Origin: Gammaproteobacteria bacterium
GTDB lineage: Bacteria > Pseudomonadota > Gammaproteobacteria > JASBUN01
Reading direction: 5' to 3'
Length of the DNA stretch: 64,000 nucleotides
Assembly: GCA_037385045.1 (NCBI GenBank)
Contig: JARRNJ010000017.1
Span: 1,797 to 65,796, forward strand
How positions within the stretch are numbered: the stretch's first letter is position 1; every line of letters begins with the position of its first letter. Position numbers and translations under genes: made by a program. Under the pieces are notes generated by a model. It saw only the letters and a program-made list of their open reading frames with translations, ran no database searches and had not been told where the DNA came from. Shown piece by piece: positions 5,498-15,377 of this stretch.

Positions 5498-5968
5498 ATG
5501 CGCCACCGTCCGAGCCCCCTCATCGGCGTCGTGATCGTCGCCGGTTTTGTGCCCGTCGCCGGGGCCCAAACTCCTGCCGTACCGCAGCCTCCCCCCGACC
5601 ACCGCCAACTGGTGGAAATGCCGCCCCAAACCCGCGCATTCATCCGCCAGGATATGCTGGATCATCTCACGGCAATCAACCAGATCGTCGCCGATCTGGG
5701 GAAAAACGACCTGAAGTCGGCTGCCGATGTTGCCGAACAGCAACTGGGCGTCTCTACCATGGGCAAATACCGAGGCAGCCCGTACGCGCCGGGCCGTTTC
5801 ATGCCGGCGGGCATGCGCAATATGGGCTCGACCATGCACAAGGCCGCCAGCGATTTCGCCAAGGTCGCCCGCGAGGGGGACGCGAAGCAGGCATACGTGG
5901 CGCTGGAGAAGGTCACCAGCAGCTGTATTGGTTGTCACTTCAGCTTCCGCACCAAGGCCCAGCAGTAG
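5498..5968 (+). CDS. class II c-type cytochrome (cytochrome c'-like four-helix bundle)
   Basis: Internal ATG of ORF 5213..5968, preceded by GAGGAG. Signal peptide ends ...VAGAQT. A single CxxCH (CIGCH) lies about 10 aa from the C-terminus, as in cytochrome c'. Confidence 0.75.
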   Translation: MRHRPSPLIGVVIVAGFVPVAGAQTPAVPQPPPDHRQLVEMPPQTRAFIRQDMLDHLTAINQIVADLGKNDLKSAADVAEQQLGVSTMGKYRGSPYAPGRFMPAGMRNMGSTMHKAASDFAKVAREGDAKQAYVALEKVTSSCIGCHFSFRTKAQQ

Positions 5969-6127
5969 GTCCAGACCTGGCCGGCGCCGGTCGACGGCTT
6001 TGCGGGCCCGATCACGTGGGCGTCGCGGGCGGGGGCGGGCCCCGGTTGGCGCCATTGCGGGACAACACGTCGTGGCGGCGCGGCCGCTCTCCAGGAGGGC
6101 GCGTGCCGCCGCCCCCTCCGCACCCGC

Positions 6128-6838
6128 TCAACGAAGCGCGAATACCATGTCGAAGGAAACCGGCATCGGCAGGCTGATCCCGGGTGGTGGCGGGGGCAGT
6201 GGCACGGCGTCGCGTACCGCCTTTGCGGCTTCCTTGCGCAACAGGTGCCGGGCCCCGGTCGCCTGCAGCTGCGCCACGTTTCCTCCGTCCAGCAGGCGAA
6301 AAGCCACATGGACCCGCCCTTCGATGCCGCGCCGCCGTGCCGCGCGGGGATAGCGCTTGTGGGCCTCGATGTGGGCCAGCAGCCGGACCAGGTAGGCTTG
6401 GCGCGCTTTCTGCACCAGCTGCGGGTCCTGCTTGGGGGCGGCGCCGGCTGCCGGCCCCGGCGGCGCGGCGGCGGGGCTCAGTTGCGGTGCCGAGGCTGCG
6501 TTCGGTTGTGGCGGAGGCGCCGGTTCGGGTGTGGGCTGCGGTGCCGGGGACGGCTTCGGCTTGGCCGGGCGCGCCGGCCGCGGCTTCAGTTCGGGCCGGG
6601 GCCCGGGCGGCGGGGGTTTTCCCGTGGGGTTCGGCTTGGAGACCGTTTGCGGTGCGGGCGTGCTCTTCGGTTGCGGGGTGCTGACCGGGAGGAAACTGAG
6701 ACGGGTCACCGACGGCCGTGGCCGCGCGGGCGGTGCGTCGGCGCCGAAACGGCTGCCGGTGTGAACGAACAAAGCCAGATGCAGCAGCAGTGAGCCGCCG
6801 CCGGCCAGCGCCCAGATGGCCGCGTCGCGCCGGTTCAT
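6128..6838 (-). CDS. tonB: energy transducer TonB
   Basis: N-terminal TM anchor, long Pro/Lys/Ala-rich spacer, and a C-terminal YPRAARRRGIEGRVHVAF TonB domain. Its start overlaps the exbD stop. Confidence 0.9.
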   Translation of the reverse strand: MNRRDAAIWALAGGGSLLLHLALFVHTGSRFGADAPPARPRPSVTRLSFLPVSTPQPKSTPAPQTVSKPNPTGKPPPPGPRPELKPRPARPAKPKPSPAPQPTPEPAPPPQPNAASAPQLSPAAAPPGPAAGAAPKQDPQLVQKARQAYLVRLLAHIEAHKRYPRAARRRGIEGRVHVAFRLLDGGNVAQLQATGARHLLRKEAAKAVRDAVPLPPPPPGISLPMPVSFDMVFALR

Positions 6839-7236
6839 TTGTGCTCGGTGACCAGATCGATACCCGACGCCCCGGCCTTGCGCGCCGCGTCCAGCACCGC
6901 AACGGCGCCGCCCAGGCTTGCCGCGCGATCGCCGCGGATGCGCACCACCTTGTCCTTGCGCGCGGCGAGTTCAGTGCGCAGTGCAGGCTCCAGCGATTCG
7001 AGGGTGACAATCCGGTCGTGCATCAGCACCCGCCCCCGGGCGTCGAGGATCAGTTCCAGCCGCGCGTCGGCTTCCACCGCTTCGCCCGACTCCGCTGTCG
7101 GAAGGTCAACGTTGATTGCCTCCTCGCGCACGAAGTGCGAGGTGAGCATGAAGAACACCAGCAGCAGGAACACCACGTCGATCAGCGGCGTCAGGTTCGG
7201 AGTGCCGCGGCCGCGACGGCGGCCCTCAAAATGCAT
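6835..7236 (-). CDS. exbD: biopolymer transport protein ExbD/TolR
   Basis: 133 aa with the signature NLTPLIDVVFLLLVFFM. Overlaps the exbB stop by 11 nt. Confidence 0.93.
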   Translation of the reverse strand: MHFEGRRRGRGTPNLTPLIDVVFLLLVFFMLTSHFVREEAINVDLPTAESGEAVEADARLELILDARGRVLMHDRIVTLESLEPALRTELAARKDKVVRIRGDRAASLGGAVAVLDAARKAGASGIDLVTEHK

Positions 7237-7900
7237 GTCCTTCCCCTGCGCGACGGTGCGTCACCGTCGACCCGTCGTCTTCCCGCGGTGGCGCTTCCTC
7301 GTCGTGGGGGAGCAGTTCCAGCGCCACCGAGGCGTAGGTGCGCATCGCCTGGGCGCGGCGATCGGCGACGCCCTCGAGGAAGTGGAGCGTCAACAGGACG
7401 GGAATCGAGACGGCCAGCCCGACGCCGGTGGTGATCATTGCCTCCCAGATACCACCCGCCAGGGCCTGGGCGTCGACCCGGCCGCCGGCCTGTTCGATGA
7501 CCATAAAGGCTTTGATCATACCTATGATGGTGCCGAACAGGCCGAGCAGCGGTGCGGTGTTGCCGAGCACTTCGAGGGTGCGGAAGCCGCGTTCCATCGA
7601 CTGCAGTTGCTGCGATCCGACGCGGGTGGCGACCCGGCCGAGGGCCCGGACATTCTGGGCCGCCGCTTCCACCAGGGCGCGCACCAGGGTTACCTCCGGG
7701 CCCTGCAGCGGCCCCAGCAACTCGCCGGCGGTGCCGGCGCGCAGCGCCCGGCGCAGCTGTGTCTCGAAGGCGCCGGGCGGTCGTGGCAGCAGCAGAAACC
7801 GCAGCAGCCGTTCGATGACGATCGCCAGCGCCACCACCGAGTACCCGGTCAGCACCCACACCACCGGTCCGCCTTTGTCGAAGATGTCGTATACCGTCAT
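7226..7900 (-). CDS. exbB: MotA/TolQ/ExbB proton-channel protein
   Basis: C-terminal 224 aa of ORF 7226..8908, starting at MTVYDIFDKGGPVVWVL. Contains the motif GNTAPLLGLFGTIIGMI. The upstream part of the long ORF is a GC shadow. Confidence 0.93.
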   Translation of the reverse strand: MTVYDIFDKGGPVVWVLTGYSVVALAIVIERLLRFLLLPRPPGAFETQLRRALRAGTAGELLGPLQGPEVTLVRALVEAAAQNVRALGRVATRVGSQQLQSMERGFRTLEVLGNTAPLLGLFGTIIGMIKAFMVIEQAGGRVDAQALAGGIWEAMITTGVGLAVSIPVLLTLHFLEGVADRRAQAMRTYASVALELLPHDEEAPPREDDGSTVTHRRAGEGHAF

Positions 7901-8577
7901 GGCCGAATCCAACCCATTGCCGTTGCGCCGCCCAAAACCATCAACCCCACGCCGGCGGCTCTTTCCACGACGCCGCCCCACCGTTGCAGTGCGGCGCGCA
8001 CCTGGAGGCCGAAGTGTGCCATCACCGCACCGAACACCAGGGCGGGCATGAGCACCGCCCCGACACCGAAGCCGAGGCCCAGCCACAGCCCGGACTGCCA
8101 GGCGGCGCTGGCGGCGGCCGCCACCAGGACCGTGGCGAGCGGCACACAGGGGTTGAGTCCCATCGAAGCGCCCATGGCGAACAGACCCAGAGGCATCGCT
8201 GCCGGGCGGCGCGGGTAGATCGTGGCGGTGACCTCGCCGCCGCGCGGCTGCGCGGCGCAGCGCCGCGAGGCACCGGCCCGCCGCCACAGCAACACGCCGA
8301 CGACGAGCGTCGCGCCGCCCAGCGCGATGGAGGCCGCGGCCGGGTCCAGCCAGGACGTCGCCGCGCGCCCGGCGGCGCCCGCCACGGCACCGAGTCCCGC
8401 GTAGGCGGCCAGCCGTCCGAGCGAGAAGGCCGCGATGGTTCGCCAGGCGCCGGGGTGGCTGCCGAGGAACACAGGTCCGAGGTAAGGCAGGCAAGTGACG
8501 TTGCACGGTCCGGCGCCGAACACGAGCCCCATCAACAGCGCGCTGGAGAAGGTGAGGGCGACGGGCTCCACGTTCAT
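7897..8577 (-). CDS. DsbD_2 / UreH-like transmembrane protein (putative inner-membrane metal permease or thiol-redox membrane protein)
   Basis: 226-aa tail of ORF 7897..8844, starting at MNVEPVALTF. About 6 TM helices carrying GPCNVTCLPYLGP and LNPCVPL motifs. ATGA overlaps on both sides. Confidence 0.75.
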   Translation of the reverse strand: MNVEPVALTFSSALLMGLVFGAGPCNVTCLPYLGPVFLGSHPGAWRTIAAFSLGRLAAYAGLGAVAGAAGRAATSWLDPAAASIALGGATLVVGVLLWRRAGASRRCAAQPRGGEVTATIYPRRPAAMPLGLFAMGASMGLNPCVPLATVLVAAAASAAWQSGLWLGLGFGVGAVLMPALVFGAVMAHFGLQVRAALQRWGGVVERAAGVGLMVLGGATAMGWIRP

Positions 8578-9605
8578 GGCTCCTGTTGACGGCGCTGCCG
8601 CCACCAGGCGAGCAGGTTGGCCTGCTCCCAGCGCCCCTGTTTCTGTTTGCGCCGCTTGAAGTAGACGGGGTCCGAGGCGAACAGGGGGAGCGTCGCGTAC
8701 TGGAGCTTGAGCGCGTCCTTGTCGGGACAGAATTCGACGCAGCGCCCGCATAGCGTGCAGTCGGCAAACACCACATCGCTTTTTTGCATTTCGGTGTGAA
8801 TTTCGCGGATGTCCATCGGACAGGCCTTGGCGCACAGTCCGCACTTTTCACAGCGCGGTTTTGCCCGCTTGACCAACCGCACCAGTCCCAGCTTGCGAAA
8901 GACCGCATGCAGCGCCAGCATCGGGCAGATGCGGCAGAAGGGCTGGCGTACGAACAATCCGAAGGCGGTCATCAGGCCGAACAGGAATACGGCAATGGTC
9001 GAAAGAATGAAATAGCCGGCGCTGGAGCCGTCCACCACCAGCTGCGAGGTATCGCCGCCGGCCAGGGTGGTGAGCAGACGGCTGGGACAGATGCTGCAGT
9101 AGGGGCTGCCCAGCGCGTGGGACGTGACGCCCAGCCCGGTAAGCAGCGGCAGGCCGAATACCAACGCCAGCAGTATCACCCACTTGAGCGGGCGCACCCG
9201 GTCAACCAGGGCCGCCGACAACGTTTCGTAGCGCCGCACTCCCAGCTTCTGGCCCGCCATGTGCAACACTTCCTGGAAGAATCCGAGCGGACAGACCCAG
9301 CCGCAGAACGCCTTGCTCAGCAGCACGAACAGCAGCAGGAAGGTTGCCAGGGTGATCAGGCTGGGAAGGAAAGCCGCGAGGAGGCTGCCGCCGGCGGTGA
9401 GGACGCCGCCGGCGCGGTGATCCATCTGGTGCTGGAACGGGATCAGCGCGCAGTAGTCGGCGGTGTGTCCGTCGTAGGCGCACGCCAGGGCCGGCAGCGC
9501 CCCGGAAAGCTTGTCGGCGGCGTAGAAGCCGACCACCGTGGAGCCGTAGACCAGAAACATGAAGGCCGCCAATTGCACCAGCTTGCGCGTCACCGACAGG
9601 TTCAT
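8574..9605 (-). CDS. membrane-bound polyferredoxin, NapH/MauN-like (2x CxxCP plus 2x 4Fe-4S CxxCxxCxxxCP)
   Basis: Start at MNLSVTRKLVQLAAFMF. Motifs CSICP, CRICP, CEKCGLCAKACP and CTLCGRCVEFCP. Start and stop both overlap the neighbouring genes. Confidence 0.85.
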   Translation of the reverse strand: MNLSVTRKLVQLAAFMFLVYGSTVVGFYAADKLSGALPALACAYDGHTADYCALIPFQHQMDHRAGGVLTAGGSLLAAFLPSLITLATFLLLFVLLSKAFCGWVCPLGFFQEVLHMAGQKLGVRRYETLSAALVDRVRPLKWVILLALVFGLPLLTGLGVTSHALGSPYCSICPSRLLTTLAGGDTSQLVVDGSSAGYFILSTIAVFLFGLMTAFGLFVRQPFCRICPMLALHAVFRKLGLVRLVKRAKPRCEKCGLCAKACPMDIREIHTEMQKSDVVFADCTLCGRCVEFCPDKDALKLQYATLPLFASDPVYFKRRKQKQGRWEQANLLAWWRQRRQQEP

Positions 9606-10387
9606 GCCGCACCTCCCGCGCGCCGCCGGCCGGCCGCGCGAAGCACGCCCAGGCCGGTGAAGAAGCCTGCCGCCAGCACGGCCGCCGCCGCGGCGTTCGA
9701 CTGCCAATGCCGGGGGTTGACGTAGTAGGGGGCGCTCAGCGTGGTGCGGTACACCTGGCGGCCGTCGCGGTACGTGGCAGCGAGCACCAGCTCGGCCGGC
9801 GGGTTTTTGCGGCGCCCGGGCGCCACCGAGGGGAAATCATCCGGCAGCTGGAACCGGACCCGGCCCCGGGCGTCGGTGCGCTGCTCGAGCCGGCTTCCGT
9901 GGCTGCTGGTCAGACGCACGGCGACGCCCGCCTGCGGGCGGCCTCGGTAGCGGAGCACGAAACGCGCACGCTGGCCGGTCTCGTAGTGCCAGTGCTCGCG
10001 CGGCAGCGGATCCGGCGCCAGCTCCAGCGCCGTTTTCACAGCGGCGGTCAATTCCGAGGGTGAATGCCCGGAGGGCTTGCCGAAGGCGAACAGGTAGCGC
10101 ACCGCGCTCTCATGCACGTTGCCAGTGCGGCGCCGGGCTACCAGCGCGTGGTAGTTGTTCGCGCCGCTCGGGCGCGGGGTGACGCGCCCGGCTTTCAGGG
10201 CCAGCGGCCTGCGCTGCAGGCTCGGCAGCCAATACTCGACGCGGCCGCCGCTGCCGTCGCGCAGTTGCAGCGGCTGTGTGCCTCGATGGCTGGTGCCTTG
10301 TGGCGTCGCGGGGGCCCAGACCAGCAGGGCCTGTGCCGGCGTGACCGCGGTGCACAGGAGCGCCGCCCAGATCGTCCTTCCCACCAT
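9602..10387 (-). CDS. periplasmic beta-sandwich protein, DUF4198-like, with C-terminal TM anchor
   Basis: Start at MVGRTIWAALLCTAVTPAQA (signal peptide), preceded by a GGGAGGGGAG RBS. The segment RFVLRYRGRPQAGVAVRL...RTDARGRVRFQLPD looks like a transthyretin-type fold. Family call is from memory. Confidence 0.6.
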   Translation of the reverse strand: MVGRTIWAALLCTAVTPAQALLVWAPATPQGTSHRGTQPLQLRDGSGGRVEYWLPSLQRRPLALKAGRVTPRPSGANNYHALVARRRTGNVHESAVRYLFAFGKPSGHSPSELTAAVKTALELAPDPLPREHWHYETGQRARFVLRYRGRPQAGVAVRLTSSHGSRLEQRTDARGRVRFQLPDDFPSVAPGRRKNPPAELVLAATYRDGRQVYRTTLSAPYYVNPRHWQSNAAAAAVLAAGFFTGLGVLRAAGRRRAGGAA

Positions 10388-10400
10388 CTCCCCTCCCGAT

Positions 10401-12566
10401 TCAAAAACGCGCGCTGACGCCCGCGGTGTAGGTGCGCCCCTGGTTGACGACGATGGACATATCTTCCGCGTTGTAGCGGCTGTCGCCGTTGGAGTCGTAA
10501 AACGCGCGCGCGGTGTTGTAGTAGAACTCGTCGAACAGGTTATCGACGCGGCCGAACACGGCCCAGTTGGCGCCGTGGGTTTTGCGCGCGTAGCTGGCCA
10601 GAAGATTGACAACCGTGTGGCCGCCCACCTTCAGGCGGTTGAGTTCATCGGCGTAGTAGTCGGTGCTGTAATCGGCCTCCGTGGTTACCATCCAACCGTC
10701 CGCAGGTTTTACGTAGACCTTGATGTTGAGGTGATGCCGCGGCACCCGCGGCACCCGGTTGCCGGTGTTGTCGTAGGTGGTTGTCAGATATTCGGGCGGA
10801 CAACTCGGGCCATGGCAGGCCGGATTGTAGGCAGGATTGGCTGTCATCAGCTGATAATTGGGGTACTGCGTGTAGCGGGCGTCGATGTAGGTGTAGGCCA
10901 GGTCCCACACGACCCGACGCGCCGGGTCGCTGCGCAGCGACAGTTCCAGGCCGCGGTTGCGGACTCCCCCGATGTTCTCGAATTGTCCCTGCCCCACGTA
11001 GAGTCCGTTGCTGGCGTCGATGTAGTCGCGGCGGTTGATCTGGAACAGAGACAGATCGGCGTCGTGGGCTACGCCGAACAGCCGCAGTTTCAGCCGAAGT
11101 CCCAGTTCCATGTTAAGGGCGCGTTCGGCCTTGAGGTCGGGGTTGCCGGCGGTGTCGCCCAGTGGGCTGTAGCGCCCGGTGAACAGTTCCTGGACGCTGG
11201 GCGCGCGGAATCCGGTGGAGGCGTTGCCGTACAGGTCGGCGTTGGCGGTCAGCGCATAGTTGAAACCCAGGCGGTAGGAGGGGACGCGGAAGGTGCGCGA
11301 GTTGCTGTCCGATGGGGTGGCGTAGTCGCTGTAGTCCAGTGCGATGTGGTCGAAACGGGCATTGGCGGTGAAAGTGAGCGGCGTGACTGGCCGGTATTTG
11401 ACCTCGCCGTAGACGGCCCGTACGTCTTCGTCAGTGCGGTTATCGCTGACCACATCCCCGGCGTTGACATGCTTCCAGGCGATGGGCACCAGCGCGGTGC
11501 TGCCGTTGTTGTAGCGGTTGGCGCGCAGATCCAGGCCTCCGAGCCAGGCCAGCGACTTGCCGCCGCGGCGCCATTCCATTTTCATGCCGCGCTGCACCTG
11601 GTCGTAGTCGTTGTGGTATTGATAGATATTCGGGTCCGCGTCGGTCGGCGCCGAAATGAAAGTGGTGTGGTCGGTGAACTGGTAAACGTTGGCAAGCAGG
11701 TTGCTTTGCCCGATGTCGCGCGAATACGACAGGAAGTATTTGCCCAGTTTGACGTCGAACTTGCGGGCGTAATCGTTGTACGCGGGGTTGGTACTCGTTG
11801 GGTCGTCTCTCGCGGCGGTGACGCCGTCGACGGTGCCGTGACTGTCCTTTTTTCGCCTGGCCGCCTCGAAGCCGAAGGTCAGGTCGCTATGGTCATCGAT
11901 GTAGTACTGCAGTTTGCCGTTGAGATAGTCAGCGCGGTAGCCGGAGTCCTGGTAGTAGCCGTCGGCCTCGCGGCGTGAAATCTGAACGTGGGCGTTGTAA
12001 TTGTCGGTCGCCCGGCCCAGCTGCGCGACTCCCTTCTTGTATCCGAAGCTGCCGAGTTCCGCATCCGCCTTTACGCCCTTGTGGCGTGCGCCCTTCTTCG
12101 TTGTGATGATCACGGCGCCGGCCAGGGCGTCGTTGCCGAACAGAAACGACGCCCCACCCTTGATCACTTTCACCGACTCGATGTTGTCGAGATCGATATT
12201 GACGCGGCCGGTGCGTTCGAATACGGGCACGCCGTCGATCACCACGGCGACGCCGGGATTTTCGCCCATGAACGTTTGGTTTTCCACGCCACGGATGTGG
12301 ATCTTTATGGAATCTCCACTCTGCACCTCCGTGGTGATGCCGGGGATGCTCTGCAGCAGCAGCTGCAGATTCTCGGCGTGACTCGCGTCCACCTGGCGAC
12401 CGCGGATCACGGCGATGCTCGAAGGTTCGCTGCGCTTGTTGTCAAAGCGATCAGCGATGGTGCTCGACTCGACGTGGATCACGCCGAGATCCTCGGCAGG
12501 GGCGGGCGGAAGGTACAGGCAGACAAGGCAGGCGGCGAACAGCAGCCTGGGGCCGGATTGGGACAT
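10401..12566 (-). CDS. TonB-dependent outer-membrane receptor
   Basis: About 720 aa with a signal peptide. Plug motifs IAVIRG and IKIHIRG. Beta-barrel ends in the C-terminal YTAGVSARF (terminal Phe). ATG at 12566; the ORF track uses TTG at 12569. Confidence 0.93.
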   Translation of the reverse strand: MSQSGPRLLFAACLVCLYLPPAPAEDLGVIHVESSTIADRFDNKRSEPSSIAVIRGRQVDASHAENLQLLLQSIPGITTEVQSGDSIKIHIRGVENQTFMGENPGVAVVIDGVPVFERTGRVNIDLDNIESVKVIKGGASFLFGNDALAGAVIITTKKGARHKGVKADAELGSFGYKKGVAQLGRATDNYNAHVQISRREADGYYQDSGYRADYLNGKLQYYIDDHSDLTFGFEAARRKKDSHGTVDGVTAARDDPTSTNPAYNDYARKFDVKLGKYFLSYSRDIGQSNLLANVYQFTDHTTFISAPTDADPNIYQYHNDYDQVQRGMKMEWRRGGKSLAWLGGLDLRANRYNNGSTALVPIAWKHVNAGDVVSDNRTDEDVRAVYGEVKYRPVTPLTFTANARFDHIALDYSDYATPSDSNSRTFRVPSYRLGFNYALTANADLYGNASTGFRAPSVQELFTGRYSPLGDTAGNPDLKAERALNMELGLRLKLRLFGVAHDADLSLFQINRRDYIDASNGLYVGQGQFENIGGVRNRGLELSLRSDPARRVVWDLAYTYIDARYTQYPNYQLMTANPAYNPACHGPSCPPEYLTTTYDNTGNRVPRVPRHHLNIKVYVKPADGWMVTTEADYSTDYYADELNRLKVGGHTVVNLLASYARKTHGANWAVFGRVDNLFDEFYYNTARAFYDSNGDSRYNAEDMSIVVNQGRTYTAGVSARF

Positions 12567-12905
12567 CAAAGACTACCCCCAATTTCTGCGTTATTGTCAT
12601 CGAGCCGAAGCTGTAAACGTCATCGGGCAATAAACCGTGCAGAGAGTGTGCCAATAGGTAAACGTATGAATGAAGGAGGAAGTTCTTCCGGATGGGCGGG
12701 GTGGATTGCGGCATTTGGCGCAGTTCGGCACGGCAAACGCCGCACCGCCGCCTGTCCTGGCAGGGACAGCGCGCCCGCAATTGTGGTACCCTCCCCATGC
12801 CCTGGGTCTGGCTGGCGAGGCATGGCCGCCGGACTTCGAAATGGACGTCACAGTGCCCTATGCCGGGGTGTTGCAGATGCCCATGCTCGACCTGCCGGGA
12901 TTGTA

Positions 12906-15377
12906 ATGAAAACGCGCAAGAAAGCCCTGCATATAGCCGGGTTGTACCTTCTGTTCGGTATCCTCTGGATTGCAGTTTCCGAAGCACTCGCCCATTACCT
13001 GGCGCCTACGTCCGCCGTTGGCGACTCCTGGAGCTGGCTCAACGGTTCGGTATTCGTCGCCGTTACCGCGGTGCTCCTCTACAAGGTGACCGAGCCGGTG
13101 CTGGCCCGTGCGCTGCGCAGCGCCAAGCGCGACGATGCGAAGACCGAGTTGGACTCGCTGTTCGACGCGCTGCCCAACGGTGTGCACGAATTGTCCCCGG
13201 ACGGCCGCATTGTCTACGTCAATGAGGCGTATGCCCGGATGGCCGGTGTCCCGTGCCGGCGATTGTTGGGCATGCCGGTGTGGGAGCTGGTTAACGACCC
13301 GGTGAGGCGCGACTGGCTGCGCGACGAGCACTTCCCGCAGCTGCGCGAAGAACAGCCGCAGCCCACTCCATTCTACGAACGGGTGCGGCGCCCCGACGGC
13401 AGTACCATCGAGGTGCGGCTTGACTGGGCCTACAAACGTGATGGTGACGGGCGCCTGACCGGTTTCATTGCAGTGGTGTCCGATATCACCGAATCCAAGC
13501 AGGCGGAGCAGGCACTGGTGGACAGCGAACGTCGCTTCCGTCAGCTGTTCGAGCACAACAAGGCGGTGGAGCTGCTTATCGACGCGGAAGACGGCCATAT
13601 CGTCGACGCCAACCGCGCCGCAGAACGCTATTACGGCTACAGCGGCGACCAGCTGCGCGAGATGACCATCTACCAAATCAACACCCTGTCGCGGGATGAG
13701 GTCAATGCGGAGATGCGGCGCGCAGCCGAGGAGCATCGCGACCATTTCTACTTTCGTCACCGCCTGGCAAACGGTGAGGTCCGGGACGTCGAGGTGCATT
13801 CCGGCCCGGTCACCATCGGCAAACAAACCATTCTCTATTCCATCGTTCACGACATTACGGAGCGGCGCCGCACCGAGGCGCGGTTGGTGGAGAGCGAGCA
13901 GCGTTTCCGTCATCTCTACGAAGGGGTGCCGATCGGTTACCAATCCCTCGGCGACGGTGCGCTACTGGCGGAAGTCAACCAGGCGTGGCTGGATCTGTTC
14001 AGTGTCACCCGGGAGCAGGCCATCGGGCGGCCGTTCGACGAATTCCTGGCACCGACGTCACGCGCGCGTTTCCGCGAGGCCTTCGACACCCAGCAGCGCA
14101 CGGGTTCCGTAAAACACGTGTTGCTCACGACGCGGCCGATCGGCGGTCGGCAATTGATCGTTTCCTATGCCGGGCGTTCGGAACGACGCGGTGGCGCAAA
14201 ACGGGGTCAGAACCACGGCATCCTCACCGACATCACCGCCCAGCAACACGCCTATGCATTGGTGCAGCGCAGCAATCGCGCGCTGCATACGCTGAGCCAC
14301 TGCAACGAAGCGATGATTCACGCCGTCAGCGAGGCTGACCTGCTCGAGGGTATCACCCGTTCCCTGGTGGCCACGGGCGGATACGCGGCCGCCTGGGTGG
14401 CTTTCGGCGACCAGCATGAGCTGCGTGTTGCCGAGGCCTATGCGCCTGATCCCGCGATCGCGAGTCGGATGAAGAACGAGTCGTCCGAGGCCCTGCTGGG
14501 TTGCGAGGAGGTGGCCAAGGCCGTGACCGCCGGGCGGCCGGTGCTGGCCCACTCCTGCAACGGTGCGCAGGTGTGCACCTGTTGGCGCGAGGTGATTGAG
14601 GACGTCGACGCATTCGCCATGGCGTTTCTGCCCTTGCGCGTCGCCGAAAACACCATCGGCGTGGTGGCTGTGTACGCCGCCGAACCGGAGGCATTCGATG
14701 CCGAGGAAACGGCTCTGCTGGGCGAGCTGGCCAATGATCTCGGCTACGGCATCAACATGCTGCGCACCCGTGATGAGCGCGACCAGATACGCGGTGCGCT
14801 CTCGAACGCACTGCTACAGACCGTCAAGGCGTTGTCGACCACGGTCGAAAAGCGCGACCCGTATACCGCCGGCCACCAGGAACGAGTATCGCGCCTGGCC
14901 GCCGCCATCGCCACGGCGATGGGCATGTCGCCCGAGCGGGTCGAGGGGGTTCGCTTGGGAGGCCTGATCCACGACATCGGCAAGATCTACATTCCCGCCG
15001 AGATCCTCAACCGGCCGGGTGCGCTCACCGAAACCGAGTTCGCCATTGTCCGCAGTCATTCCGAGGTGGGTTACGAGATCATGAAGGATGTGGATTTCCC
15101 GTGGCCGGTGGCGGAGATGATCCTGCAGCACCATGAGCGCATGGATGGCAGCGGCTATCCGCGCGGACTCAAGGGCGACGAAATCATGCTTGAGGCACGC
15201 ATTCTGGCGGTGGCTGATGCGGTCGAGTCGATCAGCGCCCACCGGCCCTACCGCGCCGCCCTCGGTTTCAAAGCGGCGGTCGACGAAATGGCCCGCGGCA
15301 AGGAGACATTGTACGATCCGGAGGTGGTCGATGTATGCATGCGCGTGATTCACGACCAGCATTTCCGCTGGAACTGA
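12906..15377 (+). CDS. membrane-anchored multi-PAS / GAF / HD-GYP c-di-GMP phosphodiesterase
   Basis: In-frame ATG inside ORF 11988..15377 (MKTRKKALHIAGLYLLFG). Several PAS/PAC repeats (DITESKQAE, DITERRRTE) and a GAF domain. HD-GYP motifs HDIGKI and HHERMDGSGYP. Confidence 0.93.
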   Translation: MKTRKKALHIAGLYLLFGILWIAVSEALAHYLAPTSAVGDSWSWLNGSVFVAVTAVLLYKVTEPVLARALRSAKRDDAKTELDSLFDALPNGVHELSPDGRIVYVNEAYARMAGVPCRRLLGMPVWELVNDPVRRDWLRDEHFPQLREEQPQPTPFYERVRRPDGSTIEVRLDWAYKRDGDGRLTGFIAVVSDITESKQAEQALVDSERRFRQLFEHNKAVELLIDAEDGHIVDANRAAERYYGYSGDQLREMTIYQINTLSRDEVNAEMRRAAEEHRDHFYFRHRLANGEVRDVEVHSGPVTIGKQTILYSIVHDITERRRTEARLVESEQRFRHLYEGVPIGYQSLGDGALLAEVNQAWLDLFSVTREQAIGRPFDEFLAPTSRARFREAFDTQQRTGSVKHVLLTTRPIGGRQLIVSYAGRSERRGGAKRGQNHGILTDITAQQHAYALVQRSNRALHTLSHCNEAMIHAVSEADLLEGITRSLVATGGYAAAWVAFGDQHELRVAEAYAPDPAIASRMKNESSEALLGCEEVAKAVTAGRPVLAHSCNGAQVCTCWREVIEDVDAFAMAFLPLRVAENTIGVVAVYAAEPEAFDAEETALLGELANDLGYGINMLRTRDERDQIRGALSNALLQTVKALSTTVEKRDPYTAGHQERVSRLAAAIATAMGMSPERVEGVRLGGLIHDIGKIYIPAEILNRPGALTETEFAIVRSHSEVGYEIMKDVDFPWPVAEMILQHHERMDGSGYPRGLKGDEIMLEARILAVADAVESISAHRPYRAALGFKAAVDEMARGKETLYDPEVVDVCMRVIHDQHFRWN

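Follow-up and report, generated by a model that had tools for sequence, protein, structure and literature searches.

What does a bacterium import through an outer-membrane receptor when the same operon encodes a dedicated energising complex and a membrane iron–sulfur protein? The question is raised by seven genes in a 64,000-nucleotide (nt) stretch of a Gammaproteobacteria bacterium genome (assembly GCA_037385045.1, contig JARRNJ010000017.1, positions 1,797 to 65,796; hereafter, the window), which encode a TonB-dependent receptor (TBDR), a periplasmic DUF4198-like protein, a NapH-like polyferredoxin, a DsbD_2/UreH-family membrane protein and the proteins ExbB, ExbD and TonB. A first-pass annotation had proposed a dedicated, TonB-energised metal uptake operon, and this proposal holds. 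The metal that it favoured was nickel or cobalt; our analysis points to copper. We regard the locus as probably a sigma-54-controlled, TonB-energised copper acquisition operon that would supply cuproenzymes, because its cis-element is common to operons for the copper proteins Sco1 and PCuAC and for heme-copper oxidases, and because the module is linked to genes for OprC-type receptors and PCuAC. Its clients would be heme-copper oxidases, served via Sco1 and PCuAC, and possibly nitrous oxide (N2O) reductase.

The seven co-oriented open reading frames lie on the minus strand and span positions 6128–12566. The TBDR gene (10401–12566) specifies 721 residues, with a signal peptide, a TonB box (approximately GVIHVES) and matches to Pfam Plug (71 bits) and TonB_dep_Rec_b-barrel (176 bits). 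It is separated by 13 nt (10388–10400) from the gene of the DUF4198-like protein (9602–10387; 261 residues), which carries a signal peptide and, at residues 231–259, a C-terminal transmembrane anchor. Next come the genes of the polyferredoxin (8574–9605; 343 residues, four transmembrane helices), which matches the Pfam Fer4_5 (43.5 bits) and Fer4 families, including several 4Fe-4S dicluster families, and of the DsbD_2 protein (7897–8577; 226 residues, six transmembrane helices). The energising complex is completed by exbB (7226–7900; Pfam MotA_ExbB, 87 bits), exbD (6835–7236; Pfam ExbD, 104 bits) and tonB (6128–6838), the last encoding a proline-rich spacer and a C-terminal domain (Pfam TonB_C, 45 bits; TIGR01352). 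Overlaps of the ATGA type occur at 9602–9605, 8574–8577, 7897–7900 and 6835–6838, and exbB and exbD overlap by 11 nt (7226–7236), so that the gene order and junctions described previously are recovered in full. The Pfam models for the Plug, the 22-strand barrel, ExbB, ExbD and the TonB C-terminal domain all score above their gathering thresholds. Six of the seven genes fit the families claimed for them; the DUF4198 assignment falls below the cut-off by sequence, although the fold agrees. The flanking genes are unrelated: a convergent gene for cytochrome c′ on one side and a divergent PAS/GAF/HD-GYP gene on the other.

The module is widespread and its arrangement is far from chance. We scanned for relatives of the polyferredoxin in one genome per species and examined the best 80 loci. 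A relative is present in more than 508 genomes, and the window protein is 57–90% identical to homologues in many genomes. The 80 loci examined belong to Thiohalomonadaceae, Sedimenticolaceae, Candidatus Thiodiazotropha symbionts, Halothiobacillus, Methylophaga, Zetaproteobacteria, Neptuniibacter and Marinobacterium, and the carriers are mostly sulfur and iron oxidisers. Wherever the contig extends far enough, the DUF4198-like, polyferredoxin and DsbD_2 genes adjoin one another in the same orientation (polyferredoxin in 80/80 loci, DUF4198-like gene in 78–79/80, DsbD_2 gene in 76/80). This trio is preceded by a TBDR gene in 66 of the 80 loci, the receptor being one of two types, either 48–58% identical to that of the window or just ~25% identical, and is followed in most loci by genes for ExbB, ExbD and TonB. 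All seven genes occur in the window order in 25 of the 46 loci whose flanks are long enough at both ends, and the four-gene core of TBDR and trio occurs alone in another 12. The combination of TBDR, DUF4198-like protein and polyferredoxin, whose co-occurrence the first-pass annotation had proposed as a check, is thus conserved, with the neighbours of the polyferredoxin retained in nearly all 80 loci. Up to 8 kb on either side of the module in these loci, no extra conserved partner or regulator gene was found, only housekeeping neighbours.

The control region of the operon has an equally regular architecture. De novo inspection of orthologous upstream regions revealed a 16-bp palindrome, TGYGTSATATSACRCA. 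Its main copy in the window, TGCGCCAAATGCCGCA (12707–12722, minus strand; position weight matrix score 14.9), is presumed to be the regulator binding site of the operon, and the centre of a weaker copy, TGCGGCGTTTGCCGTG (12729–12744, minus strand; score 5.9), lies 22 bp away. Tandem copies, approximately 19–22 bp apart, are frequent in orthologous loci. A predicted sigma-54 (−24/−12) promoter, TGGCACactctCTGCA (12638–12653, minus strand; 10/12 consensus positions), lies 53 bp downstream of the palindrome and approximately 70 nt upstream of the TBDR start codon. Both elements recur across genomes: in 42 of 53 upstream regions of orthologous TBDR genes the palindrome score exceeds the 99th percentile of shuffles, and a sigma-54 site scoring at least 9/12 is present in 29 of the 53, as against 12 of 265 shuffles (4.5%). 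The gap between palindrome and sigma-54 site is 49–54 or 70–75 bp in 26 of the 29 upstream regions having such a site. Because the sigma-54 site keeps a set distance from a palindrome and a search of 5900–13000 gave no sigma-70-like promoter, the operon most likely requires sigma-54 and a regulator that binds upstream. A listing of the 19 sigma-54 activator domains encoded in the genome did not single out the regulator of this operon. A literature search on the palindrome sequence returned irrelevant matches only. The palindrome, GCGNC-N4-GNCGC, resembles in its half-sites what is presumably the RegA/PrrA/RoxR site, GCGNC-N5-GNCGC, from which it differs in spacing.

Further elements were seen in these control regions. 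Upstream of the palindromes, the intergenic region that the operon shares with the divergent HD-GYP gene holds a second sigma-54-like element, GGTACCACAATTGC (12777–12790, minus strand). In the orthologous loci L003, L021, L022, L024 and L050, the stretch from the palindrome to the sigma-54 promoter contains an WATCAANNNNTTR element resembling sites for integration host factor (ATCAATAAGTTG or similar), an arrangement consistent with DNA looping.

Which other genes carry this cis-element bears directly on the metal. At a score of at least 12, the palindrome occurs at just 21 places in the 3.48-Mb genome, and of its 373 sigma-54-like sites, those with the best upstream palindromes are the one of the window operon and one at C21:29399, in front of an operon encoding a 155-residue protein (X), SCO1/SenC (134 bits) and PCuAC (141 bits). 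The latter region (C21:27115-29491) has its own sigma-54 promoter, CTGGCACGACAATTGC, and two palindrome copies upstream of the X–Sco1–PCuAC operon. In other genomes, 10 of the 18 best-scoring PCuAC loci (20 genomes searched) have a palindrome scoring at least 15 upstream of this operon; the chance expectation is approximately 0.06 per locus, which is an upper bound. These operons of other genomes show no sigma-54 promoter at the expected distance, and their promoters look sigma-70-like; the palindrome-binding protein may therefore not act solely through sigma-54. Two Chromatiaceae metagenome-assembled genomes (MAGs) extend the pattern to the oxidases themselves: the palindrome precedes a coxB (aa3 oxidase) operon and also a second, heme-copper-oxidase-like operon paired with ctaA, these genes having been named by eye from N-terminal sequences. 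Elsewhere in the 80 loci, most palindromes stand in front of additional TBDR genes. One of these receptors, that of L034, has a 296-bit match to Pseudomonas OprC (E = 8e-87); another, in L073, is OprC-like as well, with 47% identity to the L034 receptor or to OprC.

Gene linkage gives the same picture. In 6 of the 80 loci the cluster contains or adjoins a gene for Sco1 or PCuAC, and four loci (L034, L073, L004 and L005) carry an OprC-like receptor gene that neighbours the module or has the palindrome in common with it. In L034 the two sets of genes are merged into one series, in the order TBDR, DUF4198-like protein, polyferredoxin, DsbD_2 protein, OprC-like receptor, X, Sco1 and PCuAC. L004 and L005 have an OprC-like gene followed by PCuAC, approximately 2.4 kb downstream of the polyferredoxin gene; in L017, PCuAC comes directly after tonB; PCuAC is nearby in L010, and Sco1 in L027.

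Several observations accompany the Sco1–PCuAC and oxidase genes. Protein X is exported, has conserved cysteines and no Pfam match, and is encoded by the first gene of the operon in other genomes too. Between the control region of the Sco1 operon in this genome and a divergent porin-like gene, repetitive extragenic palindrome (REP)-like repeats that translate as GWWMRFAYPPYEDA twice occupy C21:29838-30212. A palindrome with a score of 18.2, TACGTCAAATCCCACA, is located at C35:2181, between the gene for an FNR-like regulator and ccoN of the cbb3 oxidase; it is intergenic and stands alone. In one Chromatiaceae MAG (L120, G013:C3:226000-237200), X–Sco1–PCuAC was seen by inspection directly after a nosD-nosG-nosH-nosF-nosL-nosY-like cluster, and this position suggests that the X–Sco1–PCuAC chaperones also serve N2O reductase. 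The genome of the window has nosR-nosZ on C39.

How would copper pass through such a system? In the route that we propose, the TBDR, energised by its own ExbB–ExbD–TonB complex, would move Cu(II) or a small copper chelate across the outer membrane, and the anchored DUF4198-fold protein would capture the copper near the inner membrane, probably by conserved His, Glu and Asp residues. The polyferredoxin would carry electrons from the cytoplasmic side, via two [4Fe-4S] clusters and its CX3CP and CX2CP motifs, to a periplasmic Cys/His cluster, at which Cu(II) would be reduced to Cu(I) or copper would be freed from its chelate. The DsbD_2 protein, with four conserved cysteines and a methionine, would then take Cu(I) inward or relay reducing equivalents outward. 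Gene content, conservation of the module, the layout of promoter and palindrome, and the co-regulation and linkage with copper genes are observed; which metal is carried, which way the electrons flow and what each inner-membrane protein does are inferred.

Among 22 homologues of the polyferredoxin, a CX3CP motif after the second transmembrane helix (TM2; C101/C105) and a CX2CP motif after TM4 (C224/C227) are invariant, and two CX2CX2CX3CP [4Fe-4S] motifs follow (C252–C262 and C283–C293). Residues C42, C52, H59, H63, H163 and C170-X2-C173-P, in predicted periplasmic loops, are invariant as well. The topology comes from hydropathy and the positive-inside rule, and the helices of a low-confidence AlphaFold model (predicted local distance difference test (pLDDT) 47, 22 sequences) agree with it. 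The nearest NCBIfam model, TIGR02163 (NapH/MauN), scores 74 bits against a cut-off of 213, placing the protein outside that family, and NosR is the sole polyferredoxin paralogue found in this genome by tblastn. With NapH, NosH and the C-terminal half of NosR, which are quinol-linked membrane ferredoxins, it has in common the four transmembrane helices, the placing of a cysteine motif after both TM2 and TM4, and a pair of [4Fe-4S] clusters; unlike in NapH, the second motif is CX2CP rather than CX3CP, and the partner genes are for transport, not for a reductase. We know of no equivalent periplasmic cysteines in NapH.

A functional precedent is CcoG, a proven membrane cupric reductase with two [4Fe-4S] clusters that acts in cbb3 oxidase assembly (Marckmann 2019, reviewed in PMC7558416). 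CcoG is likewise polytopic, combines a Fer4_5-type CX3CP motif with two [4Fe-4S] clusters, and serves heme-copper oxidases. It differs in acting on cytoplasmic copper and in carrying a C-terminal periplasmic immunoglobulin (Ig)-like domain, whereas in the window an anchored protein of its own has the Ig-like/DUF4198 domain, and the extra conserved Cys and His residues are periplasmic. The earlier view that a membrane iron–sulfur protein built into the operon implies inner-membrane redox chemistry on the imported substrate stands, but the statement that such a protein lies outside the standard picture of metal uptake needs qualifying, CcoG being a published precedent (PMC7558416). This genome has an intact ccoG gene on C33. 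A second ccoG-like sequence, at C64:1682-2913, matches TIGR02745 in three pieces in different frames; it represents a pseudogene with frameshifts or else an error of assembly.

The membership of the DsbD_2 protein is clear: PF13386 matches residues 13–208 of 226 at 71.6 bits, against a cut-off of 24.9. This is presumably a family named after the UreH nickel permease. Across 77 orthologues its cysteines and methionine are 94–100% conserved, with C25xxxC29 in TM1, C107 in a basic cytoplasmic loop, and M139 and P-C144 in TM4. The redox-active cysteines of CcdA and DsbD also sit in TM1 and TM4. The CxxxC, PC and Met motifs conserved in the DsbD_2 protein, like the periplasmic CxxC of the polyferredoxin, are soft ligands suited to Cu(I).

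For the DUF4198-like protein, structure was more informative than sequence. The PF10670 model matches only residues 110–182, at 22.3 bits against a cut-off of 34, a PDB search with the sequence gave no useful match, and one with a profile of 58 orthologues recovered neither of the characterised proteins Zcp and IsDUF4198. An AlphaFold2 model (pLDDT 92.6), however, has Zcp (9mhi–9mhn) as its best Foldseek match in the PDB (E = 4e-9), with IsDUF4198 from Ideonella (9gcb) also among the top matches (E = 1e-5), at a Foldseek probability of 1.0 and template-modelling scores of approximately 0.5, which assigns the fold, one of two beta-sandwiches. In the DUF4198 family, 79% of members have a histidine exposed at the N-terminus by signal-peptide cleavage, the nickel ligand of the characterised member (PMC12537917). 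In the window protein this residue is absent: the mature N-terminus, predicted to follow AQA, is not conserved, and the first invariant histidine is H80. The protein thus shares with Zcp and IsDUF4198 the fold, the periplasmic location and the association with a TBDR, but lacks the N-terminal histidine and has a different conserved set (N78-Y79-H80, R130-E131-H132, D184, Y221 and W228) and a C-terminal membrane anchor.

Other bacteria offer parallels to the route as a whole. In Bordetella, the copper transporter CrtA, of the TonB-dependent class, is paired with CrpH, a membrane protein and putative copper reductase, to serve heme-copper oxidases (PMC12914433, PMC13038864). The cruR-crtA-crpH operon of Bordetella pertussis shares with ours a TonB-dependent importer and an inner-membrane redox protein serving heme-copper oxidases, a likeness strengthened by the Sco1 and PCuAC genes in some orthologous operons. 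The differences are several: CrpH is a heme-binding PepSY_TM protein rather than an Fe–S NapH-like protein; the Bordetella operon lacks a DUF4198-like protein, a DsbD_2 protein and a dedicated Ton complex; and it is regulated by a copper-sensing upstream open reading frame rather than by sigma-54 and a palindrome. By this analogy, the module would be a functional counterpart of CrtA–CrpH and of CcoG built from different protein families. Dedicated receptors feeding copper to respiratory oxidases are a theme shared also with Caulobacter TccA, needed for the aa3 oxidase, and Bradyrhizobium PcuB, TBDRs that have been tied to copper supply of aa3 and cbb3 oxidases (PMC12617631); no reductase or permease partners have been described for these two, which resemble the window TBDR in its proposed role. 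The copper receptors OprC and NosA have the same proposed outer-membrane role, but the window TBDR belongs to a different lineage, and a homologue of OprC is absent from this genome at E below 1e-10.

A number of results weigh against copper, several of them from the receptor. The nearest solved relatives of the window TBDR are PqqU/YncD (125 bits), and PqqU is a transporter of pyrroloquinoline quinone (PQQ). Its match to CrtA (9rvq) is confined to the plug region (27 bits), leaving it outside the CrtA family, and OprC is absent among its PDB matches listed up to E = 1. In 22 type-A orthologues, several histidines and one methionine are conserved, but no cysteine is, and the receptor is therefore without an OprC-type CxxxM-HxM site. 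The characterised DUF4198 proteins bind zinc (Zcp, from Neisseria gonorrhoeae) or nickel (IsDUF4198). The polyferredoxin, for its part, is not a CcoG/FixG protein: it has no FixG_C domain by Pfam, TIGR02745 matches the true CcoG on C33 (470 bits) and the sequence on C64 but not the polyferredoxin, and BLASTP against the CcoG of this genome gives local ferredoxin-motif matches only. On the regulatory side, the coincidence of palindrome and sigma-54 site at the Sco1 operon, taken in this genome alone, has a chance of approximately 0.05, and the copies of the module in Zetaproteobacteria and Neptuniibacter lack the palindrome. The signal to which the shared regulon responds could also be oxygen or the redox state instead of copper, in which case the operon would be tied to respiration more loosely. 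For every reading of the operon, moreover, the evidence is computational throughout.

Three other substrates or functions were weighed against copper. On the nickel or cobalt reading, the TBDR would import either metal, the DUF4198-like protein would bind it and the DsbD_2 protein would serve as permease, for the benefit of hydrogenase, urease or SCNase-type cobalt enzymes, the last of these being a speculative link. The solid match to PF13386 and the real fold match to nickel-bound IsDUF4198 speak for it, as does the literature, in which IsDUF4198 binds nickel with nanomolar affinity and DUF4198 genes neighbour TonB receptors and NikR (PMC12537917). We nevertheless consider it very unlikely. 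Consensus scans for Fur, Zur, NikR and CueR in the 53 orthologous upstream regions did no better than shuffles, and an Rfam scan of the whole window gave no match, so neither a B12 nor a NiCo riboswitch is present; the NikR, Fur, Zur or B12 regulation that the first-pass annotation had suggested looking for thus left no trace in either place. The N-terminal histidine brace is missing, the conserved neighbours in the 80 loci include no hydrogenase, urease, NikR or other nickel or cobalt gene, and the linked or co-regulated genes are all copper genes. Uptake of nickel or cobalt, besides, requires no reductase. Reductive iron uptake is a slightly better candidate, though still an improbable one. 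Here a ferric chelate would enter through the TBDR, the polyferredoxin would reduce Fe(III) and Fe(II) would pass through the DsbD_2 protein, in parallel with FtrABCD and its polyferredoxin FtrD, itself a further precedent for a polyferredoxin in metal uptake, or with the PepSY_TM ferrisiderophore reductases. Membrane reductases are well known in siderophore pathways, PepSY/DUF4198 clusters have been tied to Fur and iron (PMC8238504), and among TBDR subfamily models the window receptor scores best against those for siderophore and heme receptors, all below their cut-offs. Against iron stand the lack of Fur box enrichment, the sigma-54-type promoter and a cis-element common to Sco1/PCuAC and OprC-like genes rather than iron genes. 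The module is also common in Fe(II)-oxidising Zetaproteobacteria, which are expected to be iron-replete, and its Cys-rich transmembrane motifs are atypical of Fe(II) permeases.

The remaining possibility concerns what crosses the inner membrane. The polyferredoxin and the DsbD_2 protein may together export electrons by CcdA-style thiol–disulfide exchange, any copper staying in the periplasm; they would thereby maintain in reduced form a periplasmic partner or an imported organic substrate, such as a disulfide-containing chalkophore, a quinone cofactor taken up through the PqqU-like TBDR, or the cysteines of the CuA site. Such a relay would account for the cysteines that the DsbD_2 protein retains in TM1 and TM4 and for the four invariant periplasmic cysteines of the polyferredoxin, it would suit a receptor whose nearest solved relative imports PQQ, and the Sco1/PCuAC clients do require reduced cysteines (PMC13038864). 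We think it unlikely, although less so than iron. The module encodes no thioredoxin-fold partner; the extra CxxxC motif, Met139 and the cytoplasmic-loop Cys107 look more like a metal path; and the PqqU equivalog model scores 158 bits with the window TBDR, against a cut-off of 1200. The relay overlaps with copper acquisition, as copper may remain the cargo in both.

Copper acquisition therefore remains our preferred explanation of the operon, and its interest lies in what it would add. To our knowledge, bacterial copper uptake and its passage across the inner membrane towards respiratory oxidases and N2O reductase are poorly known, the components characterised so far being a few TBDRs (OprC/NosA, CrtA, TccA and MbnT), CcoA, an importer of the major facilitator superfamily, and the reductase CcoG. 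TonB-dependent copper acquisition with a reductase is already known as a kind; the components and the regulon here are new, and full-text literature searches found no description of this gene combination or route. A more ambitious proposal, which we put forward tentatively and at somewhat less than even odds, is that the four-gene core is an uncharacterised, widespread high-affinity copper import pathway, with a new periplasm-facing Fe–S cupric reductase, a new family of Cu(I) inner-membrane permeases and an undescribed sigma-54/palindrome regulon that, in sulfur-oxidising Gammaproteobacteria, also takes in Sco1/PCuAC, heme-copper oxidase operons and OprC-type receptors. If true, this would provide a complete outer-to-inner-membrane copper route in more than 500 species, many of them environmentally important sulfur oxidisers, chemosynthetic symbionts and iron oxidisers, and would add to the known parts two candidates, one for a Cu(I) permease and one for a periplasm-facing Fe–S reductase. 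Copper is scarce in sulfidic habitats, and in sulfidic sediments both aerobic respiration and the reduction of N2O are limited by its supply, which would give the route biogeochemical relevance. The cis-element itself could be used directly in the search for the copper or redox regulator.

Some matches to the regulatory elements were set aside. A third sigma-54 site with a weak palindrome, on C5, drives a gene for a 109-residue lipoprotein and was judged unrelated. Palindromes that fall within coding regions, msbA among them, were dismissed as chance features of the coding sequence. The msbA match (C78:10257 in this genome; also L108 and L114) is high-scoring and conserved across genomes; it is most likely a coincidence of coding sequence, and makes a useful false-positive control.

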